Virus record (IMG/VR): IMGVR_UViG_2684622554_000006
Length of the DNA stretch: 52,579 nucleotides
Source: a virus
Taxonomy: Duplodnaviria; Heunggongvirae; Uroviricota; Caudoviricetes
Reading direction: 5' to 3' (one strand)
In this document: piece after piece, positions 5,409-38,816 of the stretch
How the letters are laid out: each line of letters opens with the position of its first letter
How positions within the stretch are numbered: position 1 is the first letter of the stretch
The notes under the pieces: generated by a model
What the model saw: the letters and a program-made list of their open reading frames with translations, nothing else
What the model was told of the DNA's origin: nothing
The model's database searches: none
Program-made: the position numbers and the translations under genes

Positions 5409-5639
5409 ATGGCAAACCGCAAACAGCACCGCGCTATCGCGGAGCGTCGTCACATCCAGACTGAAATCAACCGCAGACTTTCCCGCGCATCACGCGTCGC
5501 GCAAATCATGCACATCAATATGCTGCATGAGCGCAGCCACGCACTATCAAACATTTATTCCGCCTCTGTTTTCAGCTATCTGGCGGATGATCTGCACGAG
5601 CTTCAACAGCTCATCCAGCAGCAAAACAAACTCCATTAA
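5409..5639 (+). CDS. Hypothetical protein (76 aa)
   Basis: ORF following a 320-bp structured non-coding stretch; start uncertain. Confidence 0.35.
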   Translation: MANRKQHRAIAERRHIQTEINRRLSRASRVAQIMHINMLHERSHALSNIYSASVFSYLADDLHELQQLIQQQNKLH

Positions 5640-5711
5640 TTCCTGTTCCGGGCCTTTCCTGCACCTTGCGGCGGGAGGCCTTCGCACATCTGTAACAAGA
5701 GGATTGCCGCA

Positions 5712-9946: not shown

Positions 9947-10261
9947 ATGACGACACCAACCAGACGGATAAGTTTCTATCTGAAGCCCGCCGCCGTCAAG
10001 AGTGAACAGGAGGCGTGCAATTACCTCGATAGCCTGCCAGCCTCCGAACGCAGCCGCGCGCAACGCGCGGCCTTTCTGGCTGGGCTAGCGCTCATAAAGC
10101 GCAACCCAGCATTTGCCTACTGGATGGCCGAATGGCCAGAGGACAACCTCCCCTTCAATACCGTTAGCATCAAGGAAACATACCAGGATAATCAGCCTAG
10201 CGGAGTTGAATGCAATTTTTATAAAATAAAAAAGAATATTCAGACCTTATTCCCAGAATAA
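9947..10261 (+). CDS. parR: ParR-like centromere-binding adaptor (104 aa)
   Basis: ATG at 9947 with AAGGAG RBS; RRISFYLKP...LDSLPASERSRAQRAAFLAGLAL resembles the R1 ParR N-terminal region; directly downstream of parM. Confidence 0.7.
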   Translation: MTTPTRRISFYLKPAAVKSEQEACNYLDSLPASERSRAQRAAFLAGLALIKRNPAFAYWMAEWPEDNLPFNTVSIKETYQDNQPSGVECNFYKIKKNIQTLFPE

Positions 10262-10344: not shown

Positions 10345-11187
10345 TCATGATGAAATTGCCGAAGTTTTTTTATCGTGCTGAAGTACCGCAAATGCCATTA
10401 AAACCTCAAGAGAATAGCGGCGATAATACTTAACAAAACCATAATAAAATACTCGGGATGCAGCAATACAAAACAAGAGAAGAAAACAAAAAGGTAACAG
10501 TCTGATATTTATATCTATTAAAAAGGATAGAAGGAGCAGGAACATAAGCAACCAGACTGAAGCGAGAAAAACAAATGTAATGTTTCTACAAAAACCATAC
10601 AAAGCAACATAGTTTTGCATTTTCACCTGATGATTTTTAGAATGTTCATACACATAATGATAAGCAAGGCGAAAAAGATCGCCCCTCAAGCCCTTACGTC
10701 GATATAGCGTAGATACAGAAAAAACATTTATATAACCATCTCGTATTTGCGGCCAAAAGACTTTAATAAGTATAGAATGCAGTGTGGTTTTATGATGTTC
10801 TGCTTTATCAAAAGCTGATACAGGAAATAAAAAAACTCCACGAATAAAATTAACTATACTGAACTTAGTATTATGTCGTTTTATTTTCAGGGAGCTTCTT
10901 TTAGAAAACAGATAAATTGAAGGATACCCAAGTTTACTGTTCATGTATTTTTCAATTAAACAGGATGATAGAATAGATATGAAGTGACCTGAAATATATG
11001 ATAGAACGATTAATACCACATATATAAATACACTTATTATTTCTTTATATTTCAGGATATGGTTAAGAATACCTTCTATATAAACAGGGTTAATTTCAAT
11101 AGAAAACAAAAAAAGGATAAACAGGAATAACCCACCTGGAATTAGATAGCCCAAAAAGTCATAAAATGAAAACGGATTCTGTGTCAC
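10345..11187 (-). CDS. Hypothetical polytopic membrane protein (280 aa): two N-terminal and two C-terminal TM segments around a ~130-aa basic, aromatic-rich loop
   Basis: Intact ORF in a strongly AT-rich island; hydrophobic segments LGYLIPGGLFLFILFLFSI, IISVFIYVVLIVLSYISGHFISILSS, VFLASVWLLMFLLLLSFLI and LLPFCFLLLFCIAASRVFYYGFV; no family recognised. Confidence 0.6.
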   Translation of the reverse strand: MTQNPFSFYDFLGYLIPGGLFLFILFLFSIEINPVYIEGILNHILKYKEIISVFIYVVLIVLSYISGHFISILSSCLIEKYMNSKLGYPSIYLFSKRSSLKIKRHNTKFSIVNFIRGVFLFPVSAFDKAEHHKTTLHSILIKVFWPQIRDGYINVFSVSTLYRRKGLRGDLFRLAYHYVYEHSKNHQVKMQNYVALYGFCRNITFVFLASVWLLMFLLLLSFLIDINIRLLPFCFLLLFCIAASRVFYYGFVKYYRRYSLEVLMAFAVLQHDKKTSAISS

Positions 11188-11226
11188 ACTTCCCCCTGTG
11201 TTACTTGTAAATTAAAGGGTAAAACA

Positions 11227-11724
11227 TTATTTGTTTTTCCGTAAAGGATTAGCTTTCCATCTTCTTACTAACCATTCGAATTCTTGATATGTAGTATCCG
11301 AATTAATGCTTTCTCTGATTGCTTTAATTAATGGCTCGGCAATATCATATGTCTCTACAACTGTTGTGTAAGATGTTCTTTTTATCATTTTTTCATCATA
11401 AATACCTTCACGAATACTTACAGCAACTCGCTCGTAAAAATTTAAAATATATTGAAATTTTCGACGCTCGGCCATTTCTTCATCTGTTATTATGCAACCA
11501 TCACAAGGAAAAACATAAGAACGAAATGATTTGCCTGAACGATGCACTTGTTTCAGGGTATGCAATGACTCTATATATTGCATATCTTGCCGACTCTCAA
11601 AAAGAAAGTTGGCCGTTTGAGTTTTTTTTGCGGTACGCACATTGTAGATAATGGTTCCAATGGCAACCAAAACGCCAAGCAGAACAATAGCATTGCTGAT
11701 GATTTGTAGTGTTATTGGGTTCAT
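11227..11724 (-). CDS. Hypothetical protein (165 aa) with one N-terminal TM helix and a soluble C-terminal domain; first gene of the AT-rich cassette
   Basis: Intact ORF with ATG at 11722-11724, 39 bp upstream of the 280-aa membrane protein and co-directional with it; no family recognised. Confidence 0.6.
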   Translation of the reverse strand: MNPITLQIISNAIVLLGVLVAIGTIIYNVRTAKKTQTANFLFESRQDMQYIESLHTLKQVHRSGKSFRSYVFPCDGCIITDEEMAERRKFQYILNFYERVAVSIREGIYDEKMIKRTSYTTVVETYDIAEPLIKAIRESINSDTTYQEFEWLVRRWKANPLRKNK

Positions 11725-11738
11725 CCTATTTCATCCAT

Positions 11739-11765
11739 AAAAAAGGCGGGGAGCAAATCCCCGCC
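11739..11765 (-). terminator. Rho-independent terminator-like hairpin (GGCGGGGA-GCAAA-TCCCCGCC with a U-run on the minus strand)
   Basis: 8-bp GC-rich stem plus T-run on the minus strand, 15 nt upstream of the cassette start codon; it also contains a GGCGGGGA motif reminiscent of P2-family cos sequences. Confidence 0.4.
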
Positions 11766-11921
11766 TCATTAGAGGTCAACGTAGCTTAGAAACCATCAAA
11801 TTCATCATACATTTTTTTCATATCAACCCCCTCATAGAAATCATAACCACGTTTTGTGGTTTTTGTGACGTATAAACTACATCAAAGGCAAGCCACGGTC
11901 AAATATATAGGCATGCTTACC

Positions 11922-11948
11922 TGCACAAAAGTGCACAAATTTGCACAA
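11922..11948. repeat. Three phased direct repeats TGCACAA at 10-bp spacing (11922, 11932, 11942) followed by a T-run
   Basis: Read directly; helical phasing suggests a protein-binding or bent-DNA element in the non-coding stretch between the cassette and the next gene. Confidence 0.5.
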
Positions 11949-12320
11949 TTTTTTTGAACGACTTTTTACCCTTCCGGCCCGCATGGCGGCTGGATCCGTC
12001 AAGGATCCGTGCGTGCACAAAAAAACGCGCTTTTTCTGCGCGCAGGTGACGGGGGAACAGCCCGCGTTTCAGGGGGTAAATAGCATTCCCTGAACGATGT
12101 CGCAGAGACACAACAGAATGGCCATATTTCTCACGCTGAGCATGAAAAAGGCGTGAGGGCTTTTGATTTGATGGGGTGAAAGGTAAGGCCGTCAAAATCG
12201 CACTGAGGCAGCGAGAACATGCAGTCAACGCGGTGGAATTGCGTAAGAGTCTGACCGTCGATGGTGGCGATAAACTGGAAGGCGTCGTGAAATTATCTGA
12301 TTGATACAGGAGCTGGAGAG

Positions 12321-12347
12321 CCGGGGCATAAATTTTTTATGCCCCGG
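12321..12347. promoter_or_regulatory. Perfect 27-bp palindrome CCGGGGCATAAA-TTT-TTTATGCCCCGG, candidate operator
   Basis: 12-bp perfect arms read directly, about 100 bp upstream of the 12448 start codon. Confidence 0.45.
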
Positions 12348-12447
12348 CGAAGCAGCAGACAAGCGAAGCGCGTCAGCGATACGGCACCTTGCCGACCATA
12401 CTTCATAAGTGCAAAATACGAGCAAAGAAATCAATGGAGGCTGTCTT

Positions 12448-12972
12448 ATGGTCATTAATTACAAGCAGTTAAGAGAAAAACGGGAGCAGGTAAAGGAGAG
12501 CTTTCGCCGCAATGAAGATCTGACCCCGCTTGTACGCCTTGCCCAGGGCATTGTTGATGCTTATGAAATCTCGCTGGAGCTGCCATCACAGACCTGGACA
12601 GATAGCGACGGTAATCGCCAGCATTACGTTTCATGCGGACTGGAAGCAGCCGAAGGATTTCGCAGAATGCCTTTATCCCAGATCCCTGCCGCTACCCCCA
12701 AAGCACGGGGCAGCAATGATGAGCGAAAACTGACTTTTAGTATTGAAACGGTGGTTGACGACACACCTGGCGAAGTCGCGTTCGTGCACACTCCTGTTTC
12801 GATCGCAATGTATAACGATGAAATACAGGTTCGCGTTAATAATAATATCGTGCCACTTAAAGAAGGTAATTCACCCTACACCACCGTTTGTGAAGCCATT
12901 CAATATTACGTTCTCTCTGAAATTGATAATCTCAAGCCTGACGGCACCCAGAAAATGGTTCAACTCTGGTAA
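12448..12972 (+). CDS. Hypothetical protein (174 aa) convergent with the portal gene
   Basis: ATG at 12448 with GGAGG RBS, inside track ORF 12409-12972; no motif recognised. Confidence 0.5.
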   Translation: MVINYKQLREKREQVKESFRRNEDLTPLVRLAQGIVDAYEISLELPSQTWTDSDGNRQHYVSCGLEAAEGFRRMPLSQIPAATPKARGSNDERKLTFSIETVVDDTPGEVAFVHTPVSIAMYNDEIQVRVNNNIVPLKEGNSPYTTVCEAIQYYVLSEIDNLKPDGTQKMVQLW

Positions 12973-19293: not shown

Positions 19294-19547
19294 TGAAAGT
19301 GAAGGCACTGGAAGGCGACACCGTGGATTCGCTCTGTTTCCGGTACTACGGCACGACACAGGGCGTCACCGAAAAGGTGCTGGATGCCAACCCCGGACTC
19401 TGTCAGCAGGTATTTCTGGACGCCGGGCAGGAAGTGGAGATGCCGGAGCCGGAGAAGAAGAAACGAGAAATGATTCAGTTGTGGGGGAGTAGCAGTGAGC
19501 ACCATTCAAACAGGGATCACAGAGCAGGTTATTGCGTGGCTCTTTGA
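19293..19547 (+). CDS. X: Tail protein X (LysM-like); 3' end uncertain
   Basis: MKVKALEGDTVDSLCFRYYG is a gpX-type N-terminus; ATG overlaps the L stop (TGATG). The ORF as given runs 53 nt into the holin gene, which a 1-bp change in the G-run at 19482-19486 would resolve. Confidence 0.65.
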   Translation: MKVKALEGDTVDSLCFRYYGTTQGVTEKVLDANPGLCQQVFLDAGQEVEMPEPEKKKREMIQLWGSSSEHHSNRDHRAGYCVAL

Positions 19548-19818: not shown

Positions 19819-20207
19819 GCAACACATTTAAATTCAGCAGCCGGAGCGAAAAGAATTTGCAGGGTGTAAATCCTGATCTGGTGAAAGTGACCCGACGGGC
19901 GCTGGAAATCTCGGAAGTGGATTTTGGTATCACCGAAGGATTGCGCAGTCGTTATCGTCAGAAGCAGCTCGTGACCACAGGCAAGAGCCAGACCATGAAC
20001 AGTCGCCATCTCACAGGGCATGCCGTGGATGTTGTGGCTTATGTCGGCAACCAGGTGTCATGGGAATGGCCGCTGTACGAAAAAATCGCAGCAGCATTCA
20101 GACAGGCCAGCCAGGAACTGAATATTCCGGTGGAATGGGGCGGCGACTGGAAGACCCTGAAAGACGGACCGCATTTTCAGTTACCACACGGAGCCTATCC
20201 GGCATGA
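19815..20207 (+). CDS. Endolysin, peptidase M15 family (L-alanyl-D-glutamate endopeptidase type)
   Basis: 130-aa ORF with an SRHLTGHAVD zinc-binding segment typical of M15/VanY-like phage endolysins; overlaps the holin stop. Confidence 0.8.
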   Translation: MSNTFKFSSRSEKNLQGVNPDLVKVTRRALEISEVDFGITEGLRSRYRQKQLVTTGKSQTMNSRHLTGHAVDVVAYVGNQVSWEWPLYEKIAAAFRQASQELNIPVEWGGDWKTLKDGPHFQLPHGAYPA

Positions 20208-20599
20208 AGCTCTGGCCCACGCTTGGCGTCGCTTTCCTTCTGATTACATCCATGCGTCTGTCGTGGTCGCTGGGCCGGGAGAACGCCAGAAACGAAGCGC
20301 AGGCCAGCACCCTGAAAAGTACCGTCGACACACTGAATATCATCAGCGCCGGGGTACAGGATATGCAGCAGGTGCTGGCTCAGCTCCGCGCGGAAAATCA
20401 GCAACGCAATCAGGACGGAGAGGTAAGACGTGAACAGCTACGCAACGATATTGCAAAAGATGAATGCGCCCACGCTTTGCCTGACGCTCGTTTTACTGAC
20501 AGGTTGCGCAGGCACGCAGAACGCGCCAGGGCCAGCGCCGTCAGTCCGGCTTATACCGCAGACGCTGACCATGCCGGTAACGCCTCCCCCCTTCCCTGA
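20204..20599 (+). CDS. Inner-membrane spanin (Rz/LysB-like)
   Basis: ATG overlaps the endolysin stop; N-terminal TM (MKLWPTLGVAFLLITSM) followed by a coiled-coil-like region. Confidence 0.6.
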   Translation: MKLWPTLGVAFLLITSMRLSWSLGRENARNEAQASTLKSTVDTLNIISAGVQDMQQVLAQLRAENQQRNQDGEVRREQLRNDIAKDECAHALPDARFTDRLRRHAERARASAVSPAYTADADHAGNASPLP

Positions 20600-20741
20600 C
20601 CCACCCACATGGGGAAACCTCGGAATATGGGGCGACCGCCTTCTGGATGCACTGGAAACCTGTAACGCGGATAAACGGGCCATTGCTGAACTGGATAAGA
20701 GAATAGCCGAACTGACACACCAGACGGGAGTAACACAATGA
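20460..20741 (+). CDS. Outer-membrane lipoprotein spanin (Rz1/LysC-like), embedded in the +1 frame of the i-spanin
   Basis: Lipobox LLTGC after a signal-like segment; proline-rich mature part; embedded architecture typical of Rz/Rz1. Confidence 0.6.
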   Translation: MNAPTLCLTLVLLTGCAGTQNAPGPAPSVRLIPQTLTMPVTPPPFPDPPTWGNLGIWGDRLLDALETCNADKRAIAELDKRIAELTHQTGVTQ

Positions 20742-22614
20742 CCAGTAAGAACTTTGCACTGATTACAGCCATGACACAGGCTGAACTGACTCAAAAGGTG
20801 AATGAACATCTTGCGAAAGGGTGGCATCTTCAGGGGAGACGCGGGTTGCCTACGAACCCGGCACCCCGTGGTATCTAATGCAGGCAATGGTGGCCGATGG
20901 CACTACAGACATCTCACCTGATTCCCCCCAGCACGGCAGCGTGCCGGAGTGGTATTACGTGGTGGTACTTGCTGGTCAATCCAATGCCATGTCATATGGT
21001 GAGGGAATGCCGCTGCCGGATTCTTACGATGCGCCCCACCCACGCATTAAGCAACTGGCCCGTCGCAACACAGTGACTCCCGGTGGTAAAGCATGCGCAT
21101 TTAACGACATCATTCCGGCAGACCACTGCCTGCATGATGTTCAGGATATGAGCGCACTGAATCACCCGAATGCAGACCTGAGCAAAGGGCAGTATGGCTG
21201 TGTCGGACAGGGCTTGCATATTGCCAAACGCCTGTTGCCTTACATTCCACAGAATGCCGGGATTTTACTGGTTCCATGCTGTCGTGGTGGTTCGGCATTC
21301 ACCCAGGGCGCGGAGGGGACATTCAGCGAGTCCACAGGAGCCAGTCAGGATTCGGCTCGCTGGGGTGTGGGTAAACCTTTATATCAGGACCTGATTTTGC
21401 GCACGAAGGCCGCATTGCAGAAAAACCCAAAAAACATGCTGCTGGCCGTATGCTGGATGCAGGGCGAATTTGACATGAGCGCCGCTACGTACTCACAGCA
21501 ACCTCCGCTGTTTACGGCCATGCTGAAACAGTTTCGTGCGGACATTACCGAGTTTAACACGCAGTGTCATGGAGGCAGAGCGGCAAGTGTGCCATGGATT
21601 TGTGGTGACACGACGTATTACTGGAAAAACACCTACGGCACGCAGTACGACACCATTTACGGGGCGTACAAAAACAGGGAGAGCGACAACGTTTTCTTTG
21701 TGCCGTTCCTGACCGATGGTAGTGGCAACAATACCTCCACCAACGCACCAACGGAAGATCCGGATGCTGCAAGTGAGGGATATTACGGTTCGGCATCCCG
21801 AACGAACAAAAACTGGGTATCATCAAATCGCCAGACGCATTTCAGCTCATGGGCGCGTCGTGGCATTATTCCCGATCGTATGGCAACCGCTATTCTGAAC
21901 GTAGCCGGTCGCACCTTAGCCTTCATCAGTGGTAAGGCACCGGAAATCAAACCCTCGCCCGGCGGCGACACGCCATCGGGGCCGTCTGAAGATGCATCCG
22001 TACGCACAATCTCCCTGTTGCCGACAGCCGGAGATGCTGCTGCGCAGGGCTGGAGCATTAAGAATGGCGGAATTCAGTTGTCAGAGGGTGTATTTAAGAT
22101 CACCAAGCAGAGCAATAAAGCCTGGTCCCTGACGCGCCCGGTGGATGACGCAGTCTCCCTGCTGACACGGGGTGGCAGACTGAGCTGTAAGTTTCGACTG
22201 TCAGGCGCACTGACCAACAATCAGTTCGGTCTGGGAATTTATCTGTATACCGATGTAGCGTTACCTGACGTCGTGGCGATGACCGGGACTGGTAACCCGT
22301 TCCTGATGTCGTTCTTCACCCAGACCACAGACGGCAAACTGAATCTGATGCATCACAAGAAAGCAGGAAACACAAAGTTGGGCGAGTTCGGGAATTACAG
22401 TAACGACTGGCAGACGCTGGAGCTGGTGTTCACCGCCGGCAGTGCCACGGTTACTCCGAAACTGAATGGAGTGGCTGGCCCGGCATTCCAGGTCATAAAA
22501 GACAGTCTGACACTGGGGCTGAATGCGCTGACGTTAACTGATATCACTAAAAATGCCGCGTACGGCGTCGATATCGGCAGCCTGGTGCTGGAAATCAATA
22601 ATCCCGCAGCATAA
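20741..22614 (+). CDS. DUF1737-SGNH/SASA esterase with C-terminal beta-rich domain (NanS-p-like 9-O-acetyl-sialate esterase candidate); domains separated by a frameshift as given
   Basis: N-terminal MTSKNFALITAMTQAELTQKVNEHLAKGWHLQG (20741-20887) is out of frame with the main ORF 20821-22614, which carries VVVLAGQSNAMSYGEG (GQSN serine block). Copy 2 (33506 onward) reads through this junction, so the break lies in the C-run at 20863-20869. Confidence 0.65.
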
Positions 22615-22637
22615 GGAAGAGCAGGAGAGCAAAACAG

Positions 22638-23104
22638 ATGCTTAAGACAAACAGTCTGCGAGAGTCCATGCTTCATGGGTGTCGGTGGTGCCAGGCTAAT
22701 CCCGAGAAATTCACCATTTTCGTGGAGAGCGGCAACATTGAAACGACCGGAGAAGCGCCCTCGTTTGTTTACCGCTATCAGATGGTGATGTTTGTCATGG
22801 ATTACGCCGGAGAGCTGGACGACCTCACGCTGCCGCTGCTGGCGTGGTTATCCGAAAATCAGCCACAGTTGTTGCTCAATCCGGAGCGTAATCAGGACAT
22901 CAAATTTTCTGCCGTTATCAATGACGATGACAGCGCCGATCTCCTGTTTACGCTCCCCTGCGGGAACGCGTTCGCATCACGCGCAACAGTCAGGGCACAC
23001 CGCAGGCAGAACACCTGCCGGAGCCAAAACCCCGTCTGCCTTCTTCCGAAGGCGACTGGTCGCATGTATTCCAGGATGTGACGTGGGGTGAAAGCGATGG
23101 ATAA
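22638..23104 (+). CDS. R: Tail completion protein (P2 gpR family), C-terminus frameshifted in this copy
   Basis: N-terminal 110 aa are identical to the copy-2 ORF (35468-35851) that continues to ...VTWGESDG; copy 1 has CCCC versus CCCCC at about 22966. Confidence 0.65.
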
Positions 23105-23732
23105 GGCATTCACCCGCGTGGATGAAACCTTTGAGGCTATCCGCGACAGCCTGAATCAGCAGGCCATCAATAACATCGCCAGAAAGCTGGCACAGGATTT
23201 ACGTCGCGCCCAGCAGGCACGTATCCGGTCACAAAAAGCGCCGGACGGGACCGAATGGACACCACGCAGACGCCGCGTAACCCGGATACAGGAGCGCATT
23301 CGCTTTATCTGGAATAACGAAGCACGCACGCTGAAAAACTGGCATCACGACACAGGGAAATACGGGCGAACCATTACCGGGTGGGATGAGGATAAAAACA
23401 ATATCCGCACGTTTTACCGGGATGACATCGACCGTTTTCTGGAAATACGCACCCGGCGCATCAACCAGGACAGCACAAAGCGCGTCCCCATGTTCGTAAA
23501 ACTGCGCACCGCCCGCTACCTGAAAGCCCGTGCAGATGCCTCCGGTGTGACGGTGGGTTACAGCGGCGTGGCCGCACGTATTGCACGCGTTCATCAGTTC
23601 GGTGAGCGCGATCAGGTTGCGCCGGGCATTTTCACCGATTACCCGGTACGTGAGCTGTTGGGTATCAGCCAGGCAGATGAGCGCCTGATTTATAACACGG
23701 TGCTGGGCCGGATTGCGGAGGCTGTACGGTGA
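23097..23732 (+). CDS. S: Tail completion / virion morphogenesis protein (P2 gpS family)
   Basis: ORF overlapping the R stop; position between R and V. Confidence 0.65.
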   Translation: MDKAFTRVDETFEAIRDSLNQQAINNIARKLAQDLRRAQQARIRSQKAPDGTEWTPRRRRVTRIQERIRFIWNNEARTLKNWHHDTGKYGRTITGWDEDKNNIRTFYRDDIDRFLEIRTRRINQDSTKRVPMFVKLRTARYLKARADASGVTVGYSGVAARIARVHQFGERDQVAPGIFTDYPVRELLGISQADERLIYNTVLGRIAEAVR

Positions 23733-24310
23733 GCGCAGAACTCATGCGACTGCTGAGCAACATCATCCGCACCGGGATCATCTCTGAAGTTGATGAGAAG
23801 TCCTGGCGCGTGCGCGTTCGCAGCGGCGAACTGGAAACAGGCTGGTTGCGCTGGAACACCACGCGCGCGGGAGCCTTCAATGTGTGGCTGCCGCCATCAC
23901 CAGGCGAACAGGTGGTAATTGCCTGCATTGGCGGCAACCCGGAAACCGCCATGATAATTGGCAGCCTGTGGAGTGATGCCAGTCCGGCCCCCGGCAAAAG
24001 CCTGAAAGAAATCGTGGTCAGCGCGCCGGATGGCGCGGTGTTCCGCTACGACGCAGACGCTGGCGCACTGAGCGCCAGCGGCATGAAAACAGCCACCCTG
24101 CAGGCATCCGTCAGCGTGACACTGGATACGCCCGTCGTGGAATGCACAAACCTTCTGAGAACGGCGACGCTTGACGTCACAAAAGAGGGAAAGATGAGCG
24201 GCAATATCACGCACAGCGGCGGCAATTTCACCTCAAACGGCATTACCGTGCATACGCATAAGCACGGTGGCGTTAAAGGTGGCAGCGATTCGACAGGAGG
24301 CCCGCAGTGA
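23729..24310 (+). CDS. V: Baseplate assembly/spike protein (P2 gpV family)
   Basis: 193-aa ORF in the gpV position of the V-W-J-I-H-G order. Confidence 0.8.
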   Translation: MSAELMRLLSNIIRTGIISEVDEKSWRVRVRSGELETGWLRWNTTRAGAFNVWLPPSPGEQVVIACIGGNPETAMIIGSLWSDASPAPGKSLKEIVVSAPDGAVFRYDADAGALSASGMKTATLQASVSVTLDTPVVECTNLLRTATLDVTKEGKMSGNITHSGGNFTSNGITVHTHKHGGVKGGSDSTGGPQ

Positions 24311-24657
24311 CAACCCGCTACACAGGAATGAACCCGGACGGGACGGGAAACCTGAACGATATGGAGCACCTGAAACAGTCAGTCAGGGACATCCTGATCA
24401 CCCCGCTGGCAAGCCGGGTTATGCGACGGGAATATGGCAGCCTTGTGCCTGATTTGATTGACGAACCCATGAATAACACCACGCGTCTGCAATGCATGAG
24501 TGCTGCCGTGATTGCGCTGACACGATGGGAACCCCGCATTGCCCTGGACGCCATCGACGTTGTCTGGAAGGCAGGAGGCCGCGCCGGGGTGACGCTGTCG
24601 GGCACTGTCATGCAGACCATGCAGAATGTTGAATTAACCATCACGCTGAGAGAGTAA
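24307..24657 (+). CDS. W: Baseplate wedge protein (P2 gpW, gp25-like)
   Basis: 116-aa ORF (GTG start) overlapping the V stop; size matches gpW. Confidence 0.8.
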   Translation: MTTRYTGMNPDGTGNLNDMEHLKQSVRDILITPLASRVMRREYGSLVPDLIDEPMNNTTRLQCMSAAVIALTRWEPRIALDAIDVVWKAGGRAGVTLSGTVMQTMQNVELTITLRE

Positions 24658-24660
24658 ATC

Positions 24661-25557
24661 ATGCCTGCTGTTGATCTTTCCCAGTTACCGGAACCCGCCA
24701 TCATCGCGGAGCCTGATTTTGAGGCAATTCTGGCTGACACAAAGGCCATGATGATTGCGTCCTATCCTGCCGAACAGCGTGAAGCCGTCTCCGCCGCGCT
24801 GGAGCTGGAATCAGAACCCCTGAACGTTATCGCTCAAACCATGTCGTTTCGTGAAATGCTGTTACGCCAGCGGGTTAACGAGGGCGCACGCGCCTGCATG
24901 TTAAGCCACGGTTCAGGGACAAACCTGGACAACCTCGCGGGCAATATGAACACAAAGCGCCTGGTTATCACTCCGGCAACGGATACCACCGACGCGGTGA
25001 TGGAGAGCGACACCTCGCTGAGACTGCGGGCGCAGCGGGCGTATGACGGCCTGAGTGTTGCTGGCCCGTCAGGTGCATACGAGTATTTTGCACGCAGCGC
25101 CAGCGGTCTGGTGCGTGATGCGCGGGCCATCAGCCCGTCTCCGGCCTGTGTGACGGTTTCCATTCTGTCCACTGAAGGCGACGGCACAGCAACGGAGGCG
25201 TTGCTTAATACCGTTCGCGCCGTTCTGAATGCAGAGGATACCCGCCCGGTGGCCGACCGACTGACCGTACAGAGCGCCAGCATCGTGACATGGCGGCTGA
25301 ATGCAAAACTGTACTTTTACCCCGGCCCGGAATCCGAACCTATTCTGGCTGCGGCTGAATCGTCGTTCAGGAAGTGGCTGGCTGAGCAGGGGCTTATTGG
25401 TCAGGACGTGGCGTTGTCAGCCATTGCTGCCGCACTTCATGTGCACGGCGTGCAACGCGTGGAGATAATCGAACCCACACAGAATATGGCCATCAGCGAC
25501 ATACAGGCGGCGCGCTGTGAGTCATTCACCATCAGCGAAGGTGGGCGTAATGAGTAA
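24661..25557 (+). CDS. J: Baseplate protein J (P2 gpJ family)
   Basis: 298-aa ORF; position and size match gpJ. Confidence 0.85.
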   Translation: MPAVDLSQLPEPAIIAEPDFEAILADTKAMMIASYPAEQREAVSAALELESEPLNVIAQTMSFREMLLRQRVNEGARACMLSHGSGTNLDNLAGNMNTKRLVITPATDTTDAVMESDTSLRLRAQRAYDGLSVAGPSGAYEYFARSASGLVRDARAISPSPACVTVSILSTEGDGTATEALLNTVRAVLNAEDTRPVADRLTVQSASIVTWRLNAKLYFYPGPESEPILAAAESSFRKWLAEQGLIGQDVALSAIAAALHVHGVQRVEIIEPTQNMAISDIQAARCESFTISEGGRNE

Positions 25558-26080
25558 TTCACTGTTACCGCCATCAGCCAGCAATTTCATGCGTTGCGCC
25601 GAAGCTGTCGGAGCGCGCATTACAGACATCCCGGTAGACCTCAACACGCTGTGGTCACCGGACACCTGCCCGGTGCATCTGCTGCCTTATCTCGCCTGGG
25701 CATTTTCCGTTGACCGCTGGGATCGCAACTGGCCGGAAGAGACAAAGCGACAGGTGATTCGTGATGCATGGCTGATACACCGACACAAAGGGACCATCAG
25801 CGCACTGCGCCGGGCCATTGAGCCGCTGGGATACCTCATTCGCGTGTCTGAGTGGTGGGAGTTCGGCGGAGAACCGGGAACATTTACCGTTGAAGTCGGC
25901 ACGCTGGACAGTGGCGTGACGGAGGAAATGTATCTGGAAATGGAGCGGTTGATTGCTGATGCCCGCCCGGTCAGCCGCCACATGACAGGGCTGAATATCA
26001 TTCAGGAGATTCAGGGAGATATTTTCGCGGCGGCAGCAACTTACGACGGCGAAGTCATTACCATTTATCCGGACGATTAA
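25550..26080 (+). CDS. I: Baseplate/tail protein I (P2 gpI family)
   Basis: ATG at 25550 gives 176 aa, matching gpI; overlaps the J stop. Confidence 0.8.
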   Translation: MSNSLLPPSASNFMRCAEAVGARITDIPVDLNTLWSPDTCPVHLLPYLAWAFSVDRWDRNWPEETKRQVIRDAWLIHRHKGTISALRRAIEPLGYLIRVSEWWEFGGEPGTFTVEVGTLDSGVTEEMYLEMERLIADARPVSRHMTGLNIIQEIQGDIFAAAATYDGEVITIYPDD

Positions 26081-26082
26081 GC

Positions 26083-28056
26083 ATGAGTACCACAACACGT
26101 AAATTTAAAACCGTTATCACCGATACGGGTGCCAAAAAATTAGCTCAGGCAGCCGCGCCAGATGGTAAGCCTGTCCGCCTGACTCATATGGCCGTGGGCG
26201 ACGGTGGCGGCACGTTGCCCACACCAGACAGTAAGCAGACCCGTCTGGTGCATGAGGTGTGGCGACATACTGTTAATCGCGTCATCCTGGACGCAACACA
26301 TCAGAACCGCATTATTGCGGAGCTGGTTATTCCTCCTGAAACGGGCGGATTCTGGATCCGGGAAATTGGTGTATTTGATGAGCACGGCGATTTAATCGCG
26401 GTGGGCAATACTGCCGAAAGTTACAAGCCAGCCGTTGCCGAAGGGTCCGGTCGTGCACAAACATTTCGCACCATTCTGACCGTATCCAGCACTGCCACCG
26501 TGGTGCTTACCGTGGATAACACCATGGTGATGGCCACAGTGGATTACGTGGATGACAAACTGAAAGAGCATGAACAGTCACGACGTCACCCGGACGCCTC
26601 GCTGACCGCAAAAGGCTTTGTTCAACTCAGTAGCGCCACTAACAGCGTGTCTGAAACGCAGGCTGCAACGCCGAAAGCAGTAAAGGCCGCGTATGACCTT
26701 GCTAACGGTAAATATACTGCGCAGGATGCCAGCACGACGCGAAAAGGCCTTGTCCAGCTCAGTAGCGCCACCAACAGCACGTCTGAAACGCAGGCTGCAA
26801 CGCCGAAAGCAGTAAAGGCCGCGTATGACCTTGCTAACGCAAAATATACCGCTCAGGACGCCACGACGGCACAAAAAGGGATAGTCCAGCTCAGTAGTGC
26901 CACCAACAGCACGTCTGAAACACTGGCCGCGACATCGAAAGCTGTTAAGGCGGTAATGGATGAAACGAACAAGAAAGCGCCCTTAAATAGTCCTGCACTG
27001 ACCGGAACGCCAACAACACCAACTGCGCGACAGGGAACGAATAATACCCAAATCGCAAGCACGGCTTTCGTTATGGCTGCGATTGCCGCCTTGTAGATTC
27101 GTCACCTGATGCACTGAACACGCTGAACGAGCTGGCTGCGGCGCTGGGCAACGACCCGAATTTTGCGACCACCATGACTAACGCGCTTGCGGGTAAGCAA
27201 CCGAAAGATGCCACCCTGACGGCGCTGGCCGGACTTACTACTGCGGCAGGCAAGTTTCCGTATTTTACGGGGAATGATGTCGCCAGCCTGCAACCCTGAC
27301 AAAAGTCGGGCGGGATATTCTTGCGAAATCGACCGTTGCTGCCGTTATCGAATACCTCGGTTTACGAGAACTCGGCACAAGCGGGGAGAAAATACCGTTA
27401 CTCAGTACAGCGAATACCTGGACCAATCGACAAACATTCAGCGGTGGCCTTTCTGGGGAACTGTCCGGCAATGCCGCTACTGCAACAAAGCTGAAAACAG
27501 CACGAAAATTGCTGGAGTGGTTTTGATGGTTCTAGCGATATTTCAATTAGTGCCAAAAATGTCAATGCATTTGCACTCCGACAAACAGGTAATACTGTTA
27601 ATGGTGATACATCCGTTGGATGGAATTGGGATAGTGGTGCATATAACGCATGATTGGTGGTGCATCTGCATTAATTCTTCACTTTAATATAATGCTGGTA
27701 GCTGTCCTGCGTACAATTCCGTGTGAATTATAAAAATGGTGGATTTCCTACAGGTCGGCTCGTGATGGTTATGGGTTTGAATTGGTTGGTCAGATTTCTA
27801 TACCACGACACGAAAACCTTCAGCGGGAGATGTTGGTGCATATACGCGGACAGAATGTAACTCAAGGTTTATTACAGGTATTCGCCTTGGCGGTCTGTAT
27901 CTGTTCAGACATGGAATGGTCCCGGCTGGTCTGACAGGTCAGGTTATGTCGTTACGGGTTCAGTTAACGGAAACCGTGATGAATTAATTGATACAACACA
28001 GGCAAGGCCAATTCAGTATTGCATTAATGGACGTGGTATAACGCGGGGAGTATTTA
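26083..28056 (+). CDS. H: Tail fibre protein H: conserved N-terminal part plus invertible C-terminal host-range part; interrupted by frameshifts as given
   Basis: N-terminal 337 aa intact (26083-27096) with three [25 protein letters not shown] repeats; a premature TAG at 27094 is caused by GCCGCCTTG versus GCCGCCCTTG in copy 2; the reading frame continues in other frames to the stop at 28054-28056. Confidence 0.7.
27345..27370. promoter_or_regulatory. Left crossover site of the invertible segment (gix/cix-like, inside H)
   Basis: TTATCGAATACCTCGGTTTACGAGAA is the inverted counterpart of the right site; 17 bp are shared, including the ACC-GA-GGT core. Confidence 0.65.
27355..27460. repeat. 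Left arm of a ~105-bp inverted repeat flanking the invertible tail-fibre segment
   Basis: The reverse complement of 29982-30088 matches 27355-27460 almost base for base (compared by eye). Confidence 0.7.
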
Positions 28057-28058
28057 AC

Positions 28059-28594
28059 GATGATGCACTTAAAAAACATTACTGCTGGCAACCCTAAAAC
28101 AAAAGAGCAATACCAGCTAACAAAGCAATTTAAACATCAAATGGCTTTATTCAGCTGATGGAAAAAACTGGTATGAGGAACAAAAAGAATTTCCAGCCAG
28201 ACACTTTGAAAATGGTCTATGACCATAACGGCGTTATTATTTGTATTGAAAAGGATGTTTCAGCAATTAATCCGGAAGGCGCAAGCGTCGTTGAATTACC
28301 TGATATTACAGCAAATCGCCGGCTGATATTTCGGGGAAATGGATGTTCAAAGATGGCGTAGTGGTAAAGCGAACTTATACCGAGGAAGAGCAGAGGCAAC
28401 AAGCGGAAAATGAAAAGCAGAGCCTGTTGCAACTTGTCAGGGATAAAACTCAGCTATGGGACTCACAGCTACGGCTGGGCATCATTTCCGACGAGAATAA
28501 ACAAAAATTAACCGAGTGGATGCTCTATGCGCAGAAAGTCGAATCCACAGACACCTCCAGCCTGCCAGTAACATTTCCCGAACAACCTGAATGA
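28059..28594 (+). CDS. G: Tail fibre assembly chaperone (gpG/Tfa), frameshifted in this copy
   Basis: [25 protein letters not shown]-terminus; copy 2 (40796-41305) reads as a 169-aa ORF; copy 1 has an extra A at about 28126. Confidence 0.65.
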
Positions 28595-28622
28595 GACAAG
28601 GCCCGATAACGGGCCTTAATTT

Positions 28623-29150
28623 TTATTCAGGCTTTTGTGGCCATTCAGGATTTGCCGTATCCACACGGTTGACCAGAACACTGTAGCGTTCCCATGCTTC
28701 CAGTCGTGTGCGTTCCTCGTCTGTTGCCATATTCAGCCTGACAGCGCGTTCCAGCGGCTGGATGACTGATTCAGCTTCGGAAAGCAATGCGGCCTTTTGT
28801 GATTCGGCCTGTTGTTGCTGTTCGTCAGCCGTATAAATCCGTTTAACCACAGCTCCGTCCTTAAACATCCACTTACCGGAATCATCGGTCCGACGATTGG
28901 CCGTTATATCGGGAACCTCGACGACGCTAAAACCTTCGGGATTAAGCGTGGAGGCATCTCTGGTGATGGCGACAATAATATTATTTTCATCGTAAACAAT
29001 CTTTATGGTGTCTGGCTGAAAGTTTTTCACTTCCTCATACCAGTTTTTTCCGTCCTCAGAGTAAAGCCAGATAACTCCGTGTTTCTTTGTTAACTCATAC
29101 TGTTCCAGTGTTTTAGCATTACCCGCTTTTATGTTCTTTAAGTGCATCAT
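28623..29150 (-). CDS. Alternative tail fibre assembly chaperone (Tfa') in the invertible segment
   Basis: 175-aa intact [26 protein letters not shown]..., paralogous to tfa and on the opposite strand. Confidence 0.8.
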
Positions 29151-29154
29151 ATTA

Positions 29155-30065
29155 AACGCTCGCTACATTATACCAGGTGCCATTTATATACTTTTGAACG
29201 GGTCTGTAATAAACACCCGCTATATTATCGGCAGAGTTAGACCCTGTATCCTGAACATTAATACCAGACAATACATGACCTGAAGGGCACTGGAAATTCA
29301 TGTTCGCCAGTTGTTCACTCCATAATATTGCTGTGAACCAAGTCGAACATCTTTCACATAACGGGAATCAAAGTTACCGTAATCCGAGGGATTAACACGC
29401 CCCGTAATATTTATGGTCTTATTACTTTGAATGCTTCCGGGAACAAAGCGCATAACATGGACGTAATTAGCATAAACATCCAGATTACCATCGCCATTTT
29501 GTTTAAAGCCCGTGTCATTATCACCCAATACAATCGAATTACGCAAGAGCACTGGATGTTCCGATACCCAGTGCACCATTCAGTTGACCACGCAGATAAC
29601 GGCAGTGCACCAACATCTCCTGCTGAAGGTTTTCTGGTGGTGGTGTAAAATTCGGACCAGTCGGCTTCAAACCATAACCATCACGGGCTGAACGATAAAA
29701 ATACCGCCATTTTTATAATTAATCCGAAACTGAGCTGCAGGACAACTTCCGTCTCCATATAAAAATGAATAATTAACGTTGATGCACCACCAATATTTGC
29801 GTTATAGGCTCCGCTACTCCAGTTCCATCCAACTGCTTTATCATTCGCAACGGTGCTTCCTGTTTTCCTAAGGCAAACGCACCAACATGACTTGCTTTTA
29901 ATGTGATATCGGAGGAACCATCAAAAGCCACATTGCTTATTTTCCTGGCAGTTTTTATTTTGCAGCTGTAGAAGCATTGCCGGATAGTTCACCAGAAAGG
30001 CCACCGCTGAATGTTTGTCGATTAGTCCAGGTATTCGCTGTACTGAGTAACGGTATTTTCTCCCC
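29155..30065 (-). CDS. Alternative tail-fibre C-terminal (receptor-binding) cassette H', promoterless until inversion; frameshifted as given
   Basis: Minus-strand coding potential from the right crossover site down to the tfa' start, in several frames (for example track ORF 29298-29579). Confidence 0.45.
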
Positions 30066-30088
30066 GCTTGTGCCGAGTTCTCGTAAAC
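29982..30088. repeat. Right arm of the ~105-bp inverted repeat
   Basis: Reverse complement matches 27355-27460. Confidence 0.7.
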
Positions 30089-30103
30089 CGAGGTTTTAAA
30101 TAA
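30078..30103. promoter_or_regulatory. Right crossover site (gix/cix-like)
   Basis: TTCTCGTAAACCGAGGTTTTAAATAA matches the gix consensus TTCCTGTAAACCGAGGTTTTGGATAA at about 22 of 26 positions (from memory). Confidence 0.7.
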
Positions 30104-30158
30104 TGGCCGTTTCTGGCCTGCATGGCATGATTTGCTGCTTTTGGACGGGAGATTCAGT

Positions 30159-30761
30159 GTGCTGATTGGCTATGTAAGGGTATCAACAAATGACCAGAAT
30201 ACAGACCTGCAACGAAACGCTCTTGTTTGTGCAGGATGTGAACAAATATTTGAAGATAAATTAAGCGGGACAAAGACAGACCGACCGGGATTTAAAACGC
30301 GCTTTAAAGCGCCTTCAAAAAGGTGACACGCTGGTTGTCTGGAAACTGGATCGCCTCGGGCGAAGCATGAAACATCTGATTTCTCTCGTCGGGGAACTAC
30401 GGGAGCGAGGGATTAATTTTCGCAGTCTGACCGACAGCATAGACACATCTTCTCCAATGGGGCGTTTTTTCTTCCACGTGATGGGTGCCTGGCTGAAATG
30501 GAACGTGAATTAATTGTTGAACGTACACTGGCCGGGCTGGCGGCAGCGCGCGCAAGGGGGCGCACAGGCGGACGTCGACCGAAGCTGACAAAAGAACAGC
30601 ATGAGCAAATAGCAAGGCTAATCAAAAACGGGCACGACAGAAAACAACTGGCAATAATTTACGGCATTGGCACATCGACGATTTATCGTTATCACCCTGT
30701 AGCGATATACAGACTGAAGAAACAACCGGGCAGACTCAGGAAAATGAAAACCGCTATCTGA
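30159..30761 (+). CDS. pin: Serine DNA invertase (Pin/Gin/Cin/Hin family); frameshifted at about 30290 and 30490 as given
   Basis: GTG start; [38 protein letters not shown] is near-identical to e14 PinE as I recall it, including the catalytic Ser in VRVSTNDQ; an intact frame can be reconstructed by combining both copies. Confidence 0.8.
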
Positions 30762-30777
30762 CCATTAGCGGTTTTTG
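30749..30777 (+). terminator. Rho-independent terminator after the invertase
   Basis: AACCGCTA-loop-TAGCGGTT followed by TTTTTG. Confidence 0.5.
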
Positions 30778-30831
30778 TGTTAAATCAGAACAGCCCTTTA
30801 ACTGAACTGGCCGCGCTGTTAAGAGATGATG

Positions 30832-31278
30832 TCACCTTATCTTTGAGCCGGACAGCATATCACTGAACGATGAGGATTGCAGGCGCTCCCGCAAATCCTC
30901 ATCACAGCGTTCAAGAGTCAGTGAAAATTCTATCTTTTTCGCCTTACCGTAGCGATCAAACTCGGAGCGGGTCGTATTCGTTTCAGTCAGGACATACATG
31001 CCGTAAATCTGCCCGACGCCATCAATCAAAGGCCAGGGTCGTCCTGTATACGCCTGCGTGGTCAGCAGCGACAGCGACACTTCGCCACCTGTAATTTCAG
31101 GATAAAGCACACCAGAAAGAACGATGCGATCATCACCTGCACCGATATACTGCCAGCTTGCTGAACGGTTAACGCGTTCATTTTTCACATGCCGCCAGCT
31201 TTTGTTTTGCTGTAACTGCTGATGCGGCAGCGTGCGCAGCTCAAAAACAAACATGCCGTAGATCATCATCATGGCCAT
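30832..31278 (-). CDS. U: Tail protein U (P2 gpU family), copy 1, C-terminus frameshifted
   Basis: 148 aa, identical to the copy-2 U (43500-43994, 164 aa) except for the last residues. Confidence 0.65.
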   Translation of the reverse strand: MAMMMIYGMFVFELRTLPHQQLQQNKSWRHVKNERVNRSASWQYIGAGDDRIVLSGVLYPEITGGEVSLSLLTTQAYTGRPWPLIDGVGQIYGMYVLTETNTTRSEFDRYGKAKKIEFSLTLERCDEDLRERLQSSSFSDMLSGSKIR

Positions 31279-31289
31279 GACTCCTCAAT

Positions 31290-32691
31290 CTTTATCGTAA
31301 AAACTGCACGCCCGGCACGGGCGCGCCGTTCCATTTCTGCCCTGACCATTTCACCGACCAGTTTCGCCAGTTCGCGGGATTCTGCGTAACAACGTTATGC
31401 AGATGAACATGAATTTCACCACCAAATCCGGAGGCAACAGGCTCCGGTTACGGGAAGTTACAGGAACTGATGCCACTGGAGATCGTATAGCCTCCGCCAC
31501 CGGCGGGAGCTGGCCGCAACAACAGGGACCAGCGCCGGAGGCAGCGGAGCCGGGACCACGGGTGTGATATTAATTGCGGGGGCAGGCTTACTGACCTGCG
31601 CAATCTTCCGCTCCTGCCACTCCCACGAACAGCAAGTGCTCGGGCAGGTTTTTAAAGACAATATCGCCGGGGCCAATGCGTTTTTTCGTCTCCTCAACCA
31701 GCTTACCTGTGTTATCAGCAATTTTGCTGAGTCTGCGCAGCGTACCGGTATTGCTGTCTGTGAGCGGTTATTGTCTTTGGGGTTATCACCTCGGTGCCAT
31801 TGCCATTTTCCACAGGCTTCGGCGGATTGATTTTCGCCAGGTCCCCCTGAAGCAAGGCAACCTTGTCCTGAAGAATGGCCGCACGCTGTGCGTCTTCGAT
31901 TTTCTTGCGCGCCCTTTCCGCTTCATCCGGAAGCACACCAAGCTTTTCAAGTATCCACGCCAGCGTATCCAGCAACATTTTTGCAGGTGTCAGAACAAGT
32001 TGTAACGCACCGCCAAGAACGTTACCGAATATCTCGCCAGCACTGGTACATTTATCCAGAGTTTCCTTGCTGGACTCCATCGGAGACAGCAGCGATTTAA
32101 ACCAGTTAAACACCTGGCTGATCCCACTCCCGATTGCGTCAAAAACAGGACCAAACCGTTCAAAGGTTTCGCGCAACGGGGTCAGCCTTTCCATAATCCC
32201 GCTGAACACCCCGGCAAAAAATGCCCTGATGGGATCCCAGTATTTCCAGATGAGAACGGCAGCTCCGGCAAGCGCAGCCACGATAAGGCCGACCGGACTG
32301 AACAACGCCCCGATAGCGCCCCCCAGTAACGAAACGGAACCCGTCACCATTCCCCATAGTGCTGGCAGGAGTCTGACAGCATTCATTGAACCGGTCAGGA
32401 GGGAAAAGCCAAGACGCAGTTTTGCCAGCGGGCCAGCAAGCACACCAATAGCCAGCGACAACGAGCCAACCGTTGCAGTCATTGCCAGCAACGCACCGCC
32501 TGCTATCAGTAGCTGGCGCGTCAGTACCGGATGGGCCTGCGCCAGCGAGGTGATTTTTTCAAGCACCGCGTGAGCCACTGCGTGACAGAACGCAGCGGAC
32601 CGTCAACCAGATCACTGATGCGAATACGAAGACCTTCCCATGCGCTGTCGAGATTTTTCAGGTCCCCATCAAGATTATCGGCCATTACTTT
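31290..32691 (-). pseudogene. C-terminal part of tape-measure gene T, copy 1, truncated at the duplication junction
   Basis: Track ORFs 31458-31721 and 31715-32578 match the copy-2 T C-terminal region; the sequence switches to mid-endolysin sequence at about 32692. Confidence 0.6.
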
Positions 32692-33540
32692 GAAATCTCG
32701 GAAGTGGATTTTGGTATCACCGAAGGATTGCGCAGTCGTTATCGTCAGAAGCAGCTCGTGACCACAGGCAAGAGCCAGACCATGAACAGTCGCCATCTCA
32801 CAGGGCATGCGTGGATGTTGTGGCTTATGTCGGCAACAGGTTCATGGAATGGCGCTGTACGAAAAAAATCGCAGCAGCATTCAGACAGGCAGCCAGGAAC
32901 TGAATATTCCGGTGGAATGGGGCGGCGACTGGAAGACCTGAAAGACGGACCGATTTTCAGTTACACACGGAGCCTATCCGGCATGAAGCTCTGGCCCAGC
33001 TTGGCGTCGCTTTCCTTCTGATTACATCCATGCGTCTGTCGTGGTCGCTGGGCCGGAGAACGCCAGAAACGAAGCGCAGGCCAGCACCTGAAAAGTACGT
33101 CGACACACTGAATATCATCAGCGCCGGGTACAGGATATGCACAGGTGCTGGCTCAGCTCCGCGCGGAAAATCAGCAACGCAATCAGGACGGAGAGGTAAG
33201 ACGTGAACAGCTACGCAACGATATTGCAAAAGATGAATGCGCCCACGCTTTGCCTGACGCTCGTTTTACTGACAGGTTGCGCAGGCACGCAGAACGCGCC
33301 AGGGCCAGCGCCGTCAGTCCGGCTTATACGCAGACGCTGACATGCCGGTAACGCCTCCCCCTTCCTGACCCACCCACATGGGGAAACTCGGAATATGGGG
33401 CGACCGCCTTCTGGATGCACTGGAAACCTGTAACGCGGATAAACGGGCCATTGCTGAACTGGATAAGAGAATAGCCGAACTGACACACCAGACGGGAGTA
33501 ACACAATGACCAGTAAGAACTTTGCACTGATTACAGCCAT
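32692..33540 (+). pseudogene. Copy-2 endolysin 3' fragment and spanin region, disrupted by indels
   Basis: Track ORFs 32704-33021 and 33145-33351 carry fragments of the endolysin and Rz-like sequences. Confidence 0.55.
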
Positions 33541-35361: not shown

Positions 35362-35384
35362 GGAAGAGCAGGAGAGCAAAACAG

Positions 35385-35851
35385 ATGCTTAAGACAAACA
35401 GTCTGCGAGAGTCCATGCTTCATGGGTGTCGGTGGTGCCAGGCTAATCCGAGAAATTCACCATTTTCGTGGAGAGCGGCAACATTGAAACGACCGGAGAA
35501 GCGCCCTCGTTTGTTTACCGCTATCAGATGGTGATGTTTGTCATGGATTACGCCGGAGAGCTGGACGACCTCACGCTGCCGCTGCTGGCGTGGTTATCCG
35601 AAAATCAGCCACAGTTGTTGCTCAATCCGGAGCGTAATCAGGACATCAAATTTTCTGCCGTTATCAATGACGATGACAGCGCCGATCTCCTGTTTACGCT
35701 CCCCCTGCGGGAACGCGTTCGCATCACGCGCAACAGTCAGGGCACACCGCAGGCAGAACACCTGCCGGAGCCAAAACCCCGTCTGCCTTCTTCCGAAGGC
35801 GACTGGTCGCATGTATTCCAGGATGTGACGTGGGGTGAAAGCGATGGATAA
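35385..35851 (+). pseudogene. Copy-2 tail completion protein R (frameshift near the 5' end; intact C-terminus)
   Basis: Track ORF 35468-35851 ends ...SEGDWSHVFQDVTWGESDG. Confidence 0.55.
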
Positions 35852-35854
35852 GGC

Positions 35855-38814: not shown

Positions 38815-38816
38815 GC

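Follow-up and report, generated by a model that had tools for sequence, protein, structure and literature searches.

NanS, a single-domain enzyme that carries a signal peptide, is a product of the nanCMS operon. Its prophage-encoded relatives, the NanS-p proteins, have been discussed almost only for the Shiga-toxin and other lambdoid prophages of enterohaemorrhagic E. coli. The NanS-p alleles found in EDL933 and O104:H4 have esterase activity (PMC8065619), and assayed alleles of the family remove O-acetyl groups from Neu5,9Ac2 (neuraminic acid acetylated at 5-N and 9-O) and from mono-, di- and tri-O-acetylated mucin sialic acids (PMC8065619; PMC8319020). For phage phi24B, the homologue gp84 has been described as an abundant virion protein, whose DUF1737 domains form hexamers that plug the centres of the capsid hexons and whose esterase part is proteolytically cleaved from the capsid-bound domain (preprint 10.64898/2026.04.10.717836). 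In this work we analyze a nanS-p gene found in the late operon of a P2-family prophage, in a DNA stretch of 52,579 nucleotides from the IMG/VR virus record IMGVR_UViG_2684622554_000006 (hereafter the window, meaning this whole stretch). The searchable literature held no mention of NanS-p on a P2-family chassis.

As presented in the window, the gene is frameshifted and is followed, 12.8 kb further on, by a fragmented second copy. We nevertheless consider it likely that the locus is a nanS-p allele that is intact in nature, carried as late-operon cargo by a P88-like prophage and encoding a sialate O-acetylesterase, with the frameshifts being errors. It is an unremarkable member of a known family, itself uncharacterised, although its protein is frequent in databases and has been cloned once before. 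What deserves further attention is a link between the N-terminal DUF1737 domain and the phage chassis, which is a modest new observation.

Reading frame and domain architecture

The nanS-p gene, its second copy and the neighbouring lysC and gpR all lie on the + strand. In the window the gene is divided between two overlapping open reading frames (ORFs). The 5' ORF, of 46 amino acids (aa; 20738-20878), matches Pfam DUF1737 (E=1.6e-6), its residues 1-33 being authentic and the remainder out of frame, while the long ORF, of 597 aa (20821-22614) and one base behind the frame of the short one, matches SASA (PF03629, 1.8e-11) and DUF6645 (PF20350, 2e-19). The authentic frame for residues 34-625 and the stop runs from 20836 to 22614, and its translation equals WP_000202148.1 from E34 on. 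The initial annotation had placed the gene start at 20741 and the frameshift at a domain junction; the actual ATG lies at 20738, overlapping the lysC stop, and the frameshift falls inside DUF1737, at codon 33/34, in a G run at 20833-20836. Adding one G to this run restores the 625-aa WP_000202148.1. Exactly this repaired protein is present on at least 999 public contigs, labelled there as either 'DUF6645 domain-containing protein' or 'DUF1737 domain-containing protein'; its sequence cluster also includes proteins that go by 'SASA family carbohydrate esterase' or '9-O-acetyl-N-acetylneuraminic acid deacetylase'.

The repaired 625-aa protein contains all three Pfam domains (DUF1737, SASA and DUF6645). 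The profile searches that had been proposed for PF03629 and DUF1737 both gave matches, at 44.3 bits (cutoff 24.8) for the former and, for PF08410 (DUF1737, residues 4-53), at 28.8 bits (cutoff 24). The DUF1737 N-terminal domain (residues 1-55; 20738-20901), inside which the frameshift lies, belongs to a P2-chassis-specific subtype with the signature EPG(T/V)PWYLMQAM. It is followed by a NanS-homologous SGNH/SASA esterase domain (residues 69-390; 20941-21906), matching the NanS/YjhS structure (PDB 3PT5, E=1.7e-125, residues 69-388), and by a C-terminal DUF6645 domain with a lectin-like jelly-roll (residues 430-625; 22024-22611; PF20350, 2e-19), matching the structure of a NanS-p C-terminal domain (PDB 6YP6, E=1.7e-29, residues 430-622). 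Three of the four aromatic residues proposed for sugar binding in the phi24B C-terminal domain (PMC10462455) remain aromatic here. The architecture read initially from the letters (DUF1737, an SASA/SGNH domain with GQSN and a beta-rich C-terminal domain) is therefore borne out by the Pfam, 3PT5 and 6YP6 matches, and the designation as a NanS-p-like esterase by an identity of 84-86% to the NanS-p of an Stx1a phage in the esterase and C-terminal domains.

The GQSN block VVVLAGQSNAMSYGEG was found as described, with GQSN itself at 20974-20985 (block I) and the codon of the nucleophile S82 at 20980-20982. In the alignment all four SGNH blocks are kept in their NanS-type versions, the remaining three being CCRGGSAF (residues 181-188), QGEFD (residues 242-246) and RQTH (block IV, residues 365-368, with the H368 codon at 21838-21840). 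Block IV has the form RxxH, as opposed to the DxxH of classical SGNH hydrolases. The alignment pairs Ser82 and His368 with the catalytic Ser and His of NanS, presumably its Ser19 and His301, which is consistent with the 11-residue offset in the 3PT5 alignment. Confirmation of a complete Ser-His-Asp triad against NanS had been suggested as a check; the Ser and His are in place, but the triad is not a defining feature of NanS, as mutagenesis established only Ser and His as catalytic and the acidic residue was not identified (PMC10017367). Since NanS itself has only these two residues established, the triad is no valid test of membership. Judged by its sequence, the locus is a member of the NanS-p family: all the sequence-level features of the family were found, and only the lambdoid placement between Q and S is absent.

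Origin of the frameshift and of the second copy

Over 1951 nt (20700-22650), the window differs from the prophage of E. coli strain 4/1-1 by a single gap and no mismatch, and this sole difference is the G4 homopolymer at 20833-20836, one G short of G5. All 367 complete E. coli genomes that contain this 86-nt junction have G5 (367/367), and none has G4 (0/367). Additionally, the complete P2-type alleles in IMG/VR are intact in nine out of nine cases, with lengths of 625-627 aa, and public error-prone assemblies contain many fragments of this same gene, frameshifted in different ways.

The deletion belongs to a class that recurs along the window. Over 27.3 kb, the sequence that includes the first copy of the gene (copy 1) differs from strain 4/1-1 by three substitutions and five one-base deletions, all of the latter in G/C runs; besides the one in nanS-p, these lie at ~19478-19482 (gene X), ~22950-22954 (gpR), 27088 and 27289. 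The deletion in tail gene X lengthens its product to 86 aa, and the C5>C4 deletion near 22954 truncates the gpR of copy 1 to 147 aa, while copy 2 has the correct C5. Among the G/C runs of at least five bases, 3 of 23 are shortened, and A/T runs are unaffected. Compared with the ST131-type reference prophage, the window as a whole has a handful of substitutions and more than 150 single-base insertions or deletions (indels), with about 5 indels per kb and at most one substitution between 27.8 and 32.7 kb. To judge from these comparisons, the pattern is the homopolymer-miscall signature of a poorly polished long-read assembly and, because indels vastly outnumber substitutions throughout the window, the frameshift of copy 1 and the frameshifts that fragment copy 2 are most likely sequencing or assembly errors, and not biology.

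The second copy of nanS-p (33506-35361) has no mismatches and 27 one-base gaps relative to copy 1, and also reads G4. It lies in a direct head-to-tail repeat of 12.8 kb (19905-32691 = 32692-45414; no mismatches, 132 one-base gaps), which spans from the middle of the endolysin gene to the middle of the tape-measure gene, so that the junction falls inside these two genes. Indel density is uneven, at ~0.2/kb before 27 kb, ~5/kb at 27.8-32.7 kb and ~10/kb at 32.7-38.7 kb. The 12.8-kb duplication is probably a misassembled or unpolished repeat; the fragmentation of copy 2 is not biological, and the duplication itself is possibly spurious. The initial annotation had taken the frameshift and the fragmented second copy as reasons to doubt the function of the gene, a doubt that loses its ground with this homopolymer-error signature and possibly spurious duplication. 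In practical terms, the locus is a warning that an error-rich assembly can yield an apparent pseudogene together with a 'fragmented second copy'.

The alternative is that the G5>G4 deletion is genuine in this strain, which would make nanS-p a pseudogene, leaving a 46-aa DUF1737 fragment and, at best, an internally started and truncated esterase. G4 is indeed shared by both copies, with no difference between them from 20618 to 20864, slippage in homopolymers is known as a genuine source of mutations, and prophage genes do decay in the reference strains (in 4/1-1, for example, an internal stop interrupts gpM, and gpD is truncated). We nonetheless regard a genuine deletion as unlikely, given that none of the 367 other genomes has G4, that the same class of G/C-run loss affects the structural genes X and R (the copies disagreeing at R), and that such an excess of indels over substitutions is unlike real divergence. 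Programmed slippage on G4 (-1 ribosomal slippage on G_GGG, or transcriptional slippage), yielding mainly a free DUF1737 peptide, with a low level of full-length protein, is hardly credible: a -1 shift of tRNA-Gly from GGG to the overlapping GGG would give the exact wild-type ...LQG-ETRV, but no other genome has G4, the site is without the canonical X_XXY_YYZ heptamer and without an evident stimulatory structure (none was sought), every intact allele is one continuous ORF, and the error profile of the assembly fully accounts for the site.

As a separate observation, four 'plasmids' in PLSDB (CP054242, CP054244, CP054248 and CP054252), all from one E. coli assembly (foot bone infection), carry the gene at 98.3-100% identity. 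With sizes ranging from 9 kb to 542 kb, these records resemble fragmentary, error-prone chromosomal contigs filed as plasmids, and the window may stem from an assembly of this type.

Chassis, N-terminal domain and proposed function

The window corresponds to the complete serS-dmsA P2-family prophage known from the ST131 strains EC958 and 4/1-1. This prophage is assigned as P88-like (Xuanwuvirus, Peduoviridae, P2 family) and occupies the serS-dmsA site in ST131 and other lineages; its RefSeq annotation includes a P2-family major capsid protein, GPO, gpM, X, V, W, J and I. The flanking P2 genes confirm the P2-family carrier named initially, and the placement of the esterase gene after the spanin and before the tail-completion genes also holds. 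Pfam places genes for an M15 endolysin, for a LysB-like protein and for LysC upstream of it, and those for the P2 proteins gpR and gpS (Phage_tail_S) downstream. The stop of lysC (20430-20741; Rz1-like o-spanin, PF23793) overlaps the nanS-p ATG (ATGA) at 20738, and the tail-completion gene for P2 gpR (22638-23081) starts 23 nt past the nanS-p stop (22614). The same arrangement is seen across P2-type loci, where lysC abuts nanS-p with a gap of 0 nt in 11 out of 11 cases and gpR lies 27-30 nt past the coding sequence. The cassette that is absent or replaced in P88 (20686-22679) comprises the last 18 lysC codons, nanS-p, the spacer and the first 14 gpR codons.

In lambdoid loci (from IMG/VR and Escherichia), on the other hand, a holin gene lies downstream of nanS-p in all cases (68/68, at a median distance of 157 nt), and in 933W and the Stx1a phage nanS-p is found between stx/Q and the holin. 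The initial statement that lambdoid NanS-p genes share the post-lysis position is consequently wrong, the placement after lysC being specific to the P2-type alleles. A promoter and terminator scan around nanS-p gave no signal above the shuffled control. Because it shows no signals of its own and is tightly packed between lysC and gpR, nanS-p seems to be an integral part of the late operon and not a moron that is expressed autonomously.

Of 5426 complete E. coli genomes, 367 contain the P2-type N-terminal junction, members of the pandemic ST131 lineage among them. A scan of species-representative genomes, which is an insensitive one, found five nanS-p loci, none of them P2-type, and saw no spread beyond Escherichia. 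A word-index search with the 70-aa N-terminus returned ten short proteins and no distant relatives; the eight that were inspected are truncated, most of them being frameshifted fragments. With the N-terminal 64 aa, tblastn across 50,697 phage records matched no more than three, all near-identical and derived from prophages. Two 'vB_EcoM' records among the phage matches are partial contigs with host genes; in one of them (L093, ON470599.1, 'Escherichia phage vB_EcoM-569R5'), 11 kb of host genes from ycaO to dmsA are followed by the left half of the prophage, ending inside nanS-p. Because they include host genes, these records are no proof of a virion or a packaged genome.

We compared, domain by domain, six alleles: three from two P2-family lineages, the P2-type allele L099 and two lambdoid ones. 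L099 was classed as P2-type, its locus stopping short of the capsid gene; for loci that include this gene, the capsid proteins of the two P2 lineages are 62% identical. The N-terminal domain sorts with the chassis, with identities of 55-96% within the P2-type group and 62% within the lambdoid group, but of only 20-39% between them; the domain of the window allele is 20-35% identical to lambdoid versions. The esterase domain (63-84%) shows no such partition, the window allele being closest to that of the Stx1a phage (84%) and L099 to that of 933W (74%), and the identities of the C-terminal domain (28-86%) also cut across chassis. Linkage alone is not sufficient to explain the fidelity of the N-terminal domain, since both terminal domains adjoin chassis-specific genes and only the C-terminal one has been exchanged. 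The pattern fits a chassis-specific role of the N-terminal domain in capsid docking, without amounting to proof, and the contrast between an N-terminal domain that stays with its chassis and catalytic and lectin domains that are exchanged offers a simple comparative test of the capsid-docking claim for DUF1737.

In the mechanism that we propose, nanS-p would be transcribed with the P2 late O-operon once the prophage is induced, and its translation would be coupled to that of lysC. To judge by its homologues, NanS and assayed NanS-p enzymes, the enzyme would remove 9-O-acetyl groups (and also 7/8-O-acetyl groups) from free and mucin-bound sialic acids, which would then be usable by E. coli or cleavable by sialidases, and its C-terminal domain would direct it to glycans. 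If gp84 of phi24B is a guide, DUF1737 would dock the enzyme on the capsid, with enzyme also released to the medium at lysis. More tentatively, and as a possibility that we do not rate as probable, DUF1737 may be a chassis-matched capsid adaptor, by which P2-family phages of E. coli display or load a mucin-directed esterase on a T=7 capsid, the esterase and lectin modules being swapped freely with lambdoid prophages. If this were true, NanS-p would be a portable 'enzyme-on-capsid' module, shared by the unrelated virion architectures of P2-type myoviruses and lambdoid phages (phi24B being a T=9 podovirus). Because the RefSeq label reads only 'DUF6645 domain-containing protein', a likely role in the use of O-acetylated mucin sialic acids is easily missed.

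Several observations weigh against a functional sialate esterase or against its docking to the capsid. Block IV reads RQTH, and not the RSSH/RASH of NanS and the Stx2a alleles (Arg and His are kept, and RPTH is seen in other NanS-p alleles), and the G4 run is common to both copies in the window. The 'tooth' Tyr42, which anchors phi24B gp84 to the capsid, is not conserved, aligning with Thr43 here; the docking step is drawn by analogy from one preprint, on a T=9 podovirus; and an AlphaFold2 prediction of the 96-aa N-terminal fragment, made without an alignment, was uninformative, with a predicted local distance difference test (pLDDT) score of 44.5. The last of these points comes from the literature and depends on the identity of the protein. 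The window protein is very probably EC958_1029, a NanS homologue studied in PMC5425062, because of the spacing of the locus tags and because it is 81% identical overall to a lambdoid ST131 paralogue of 617 aa; this paralogue is probably EC958_1546 (an unverified assignment), and the published identity between EC958_1029 and EC958_1546 is 82.7% (PMC5425062). Overexpression of EC958_1029 gave no motility phenotype, unlike that of the lambdoid paralogue (PMC5425062), a result that is uninformative on esterase activity.

A different role would be that of a mainly virion-borne, depolymerase-like protein, which de-O-acetylates bacterial surface polysaccharide (O-antigen or a K1-type polysialic capsule) for adsorption and does not act on host mucin. 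The presence of gp84 in the phi24B virion, with DUF1737 on the hexons (preprint 10.64898/2026.04.10.717836), would agree with such a role, as would the location of nanS-p among structural late genes, without signals of its own, and the tracking of the chassis by the N-terminal domain; a review on Stx phages also suggests de-O-acetylation of lipopolysaccharide as a possible role (PMC8065619). We find this role quite improbable, however, as the catalytic domain shares 58% identity with the sialate-specific NanS and 84% with the Stx1a-phage NanS-p, and other NanS-p alleles, although not of this subtype, act on Neu5,9Ac2 and mucin glycans (PMC8065619). Moreover, a capsid site is ill-suited to receptor processing, which is normally a task of tail fibres or tail spikes, and the esterase part of phi24B gp84 is separated by cleavage from the domain bound to the capsid. 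The virion-associated polysaccharide deacetylase that had been offered as an initial alternative is supported in part, by the capsid-bound DUF1737 of the phi24B preprint; as to the substrate, homology continues to point to O-acetyl sialic acid.

Two further observations concern the exchange of nanS-p between prophages. A second P2-family lineage (L094-L100; for example, L094 8001-9968) has a DUF1737-SASA protein of 642-656 aa in the same slot between lysB/lysC and R, with an N-terminal domain 55-64% identical to that of the window allele, and is present in 14 complete E. coli genomes. In the matching genomes RefSeq annotates DUF6645 and DUF1378, the latter being typical of the lambdoid interval between nanS-p and the holin. 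Additionally, in the IMG/VR contigs L018 and L019 (junction ~11880) a P2 left arm through nanS-p is joined to a lambdoid holin/endolysin region, and in L026 (~2948) and L039 (~10180) a lambdoid tRNA region and N-terminal domain are joined to a P2-type nanS-p body with gpR/S. These four chimeric contigs may be reciprocal-looking inter-prophage recombinants at nanS-p, or else assembly chimeras, and nanS-p may serve as a recombination patch between unrelated prophages. The capsid-adaptor reading given above, if true, would likewise make the gene a patch of homology through which P2-like and lambdoid prophages are driven to recombine.

Further features of the prophage and comparison with known systems

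Other parts of the prophage also deserve mention. A tail-fibre and assembly segment (27341-30107; in copy 2, 40074-42822) is inverted relative to E. coli 4/1-1 and flanked by inverted repeats of ~500 bp with 78% identity; a recombinase gene, hit by indels, adjoins it (~30163-30762). The segment is an invertible host-range switch of the Cin/Gin type. In the left part of the window, Rfam identifies adjacent isrK (5155-5229, 65 bits) and C4 antisense RNA (5265-5352, 83 bits) elements, which overlap an ORF (5098-5715) upstream of the replication gene (6084-8906). ParM (8983-9942) and a plasmid partition/stability protein (9947-10261) follow, both named after RefSeq from the identical ST131 prophage, and hint that the prophage may have a plasmid-like maintenance option. 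Between the partition genes and the portal gene lies a low-GC island (36-38%; 10345-12972), encoding a DUF4760 protein and hypothetical proteins, in which PADLOC gave a single weak Csx27-like match (E=1.1e-5); it may represent cargo of a P2 defence hotspot.

Compared with the systems described so far, the window allele is closest to the NanS-p of the Stx1a/434 type (BCI49065.1 'yjhS', 616 aa), which has the same three-domain architecture, the SGNH blocks and a block IV of the form RxTH. Esterase domain, linker and C-terminal domain are 84%, 90% and 86% identical between the two, DUF1737 only 35%, and the Stx1a gene is found on a lambdoid chassis, between stx/Q and the holin, whereas the window allele lies between lysC and the P2 tail gene R. 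The more distant 933W L0105/phi24B gp84 (vb_24B_21), the NanS-p whose structure and enzymology have been studied, shares with it the DUF1737-SASA-jelly-roll architecture and the catalytic Ser and His, with identities, in domain order, of 22%, 67% and 38%. The window allele has Ser/Pro-rich linkers at the positions where phi24B gp84 is reportedly processed, the carriers being a T=9 lambdoid podovirus in the case of phi24B and a P2-type myovirus in the window.

The esterase domain is also 58% identical, over 316 residues, to the chromosomal NanS (YjhS, PDB 3PT5); unlike NanS, the window protein is phage-encoded, is without a signal peptide and adds the DUF1737 and DUF6645 domains. With respect to the prophage itself, P88 (Xuanwuvirus P88, NC_026014) is ~96-97% identical in DNA on both flanks of nanS-p and has no gene between lysC and R, while the ST131 prophage of EC958 and 4/1-1, in which nanS-p is intact, is otherwise virtually the same as the window.

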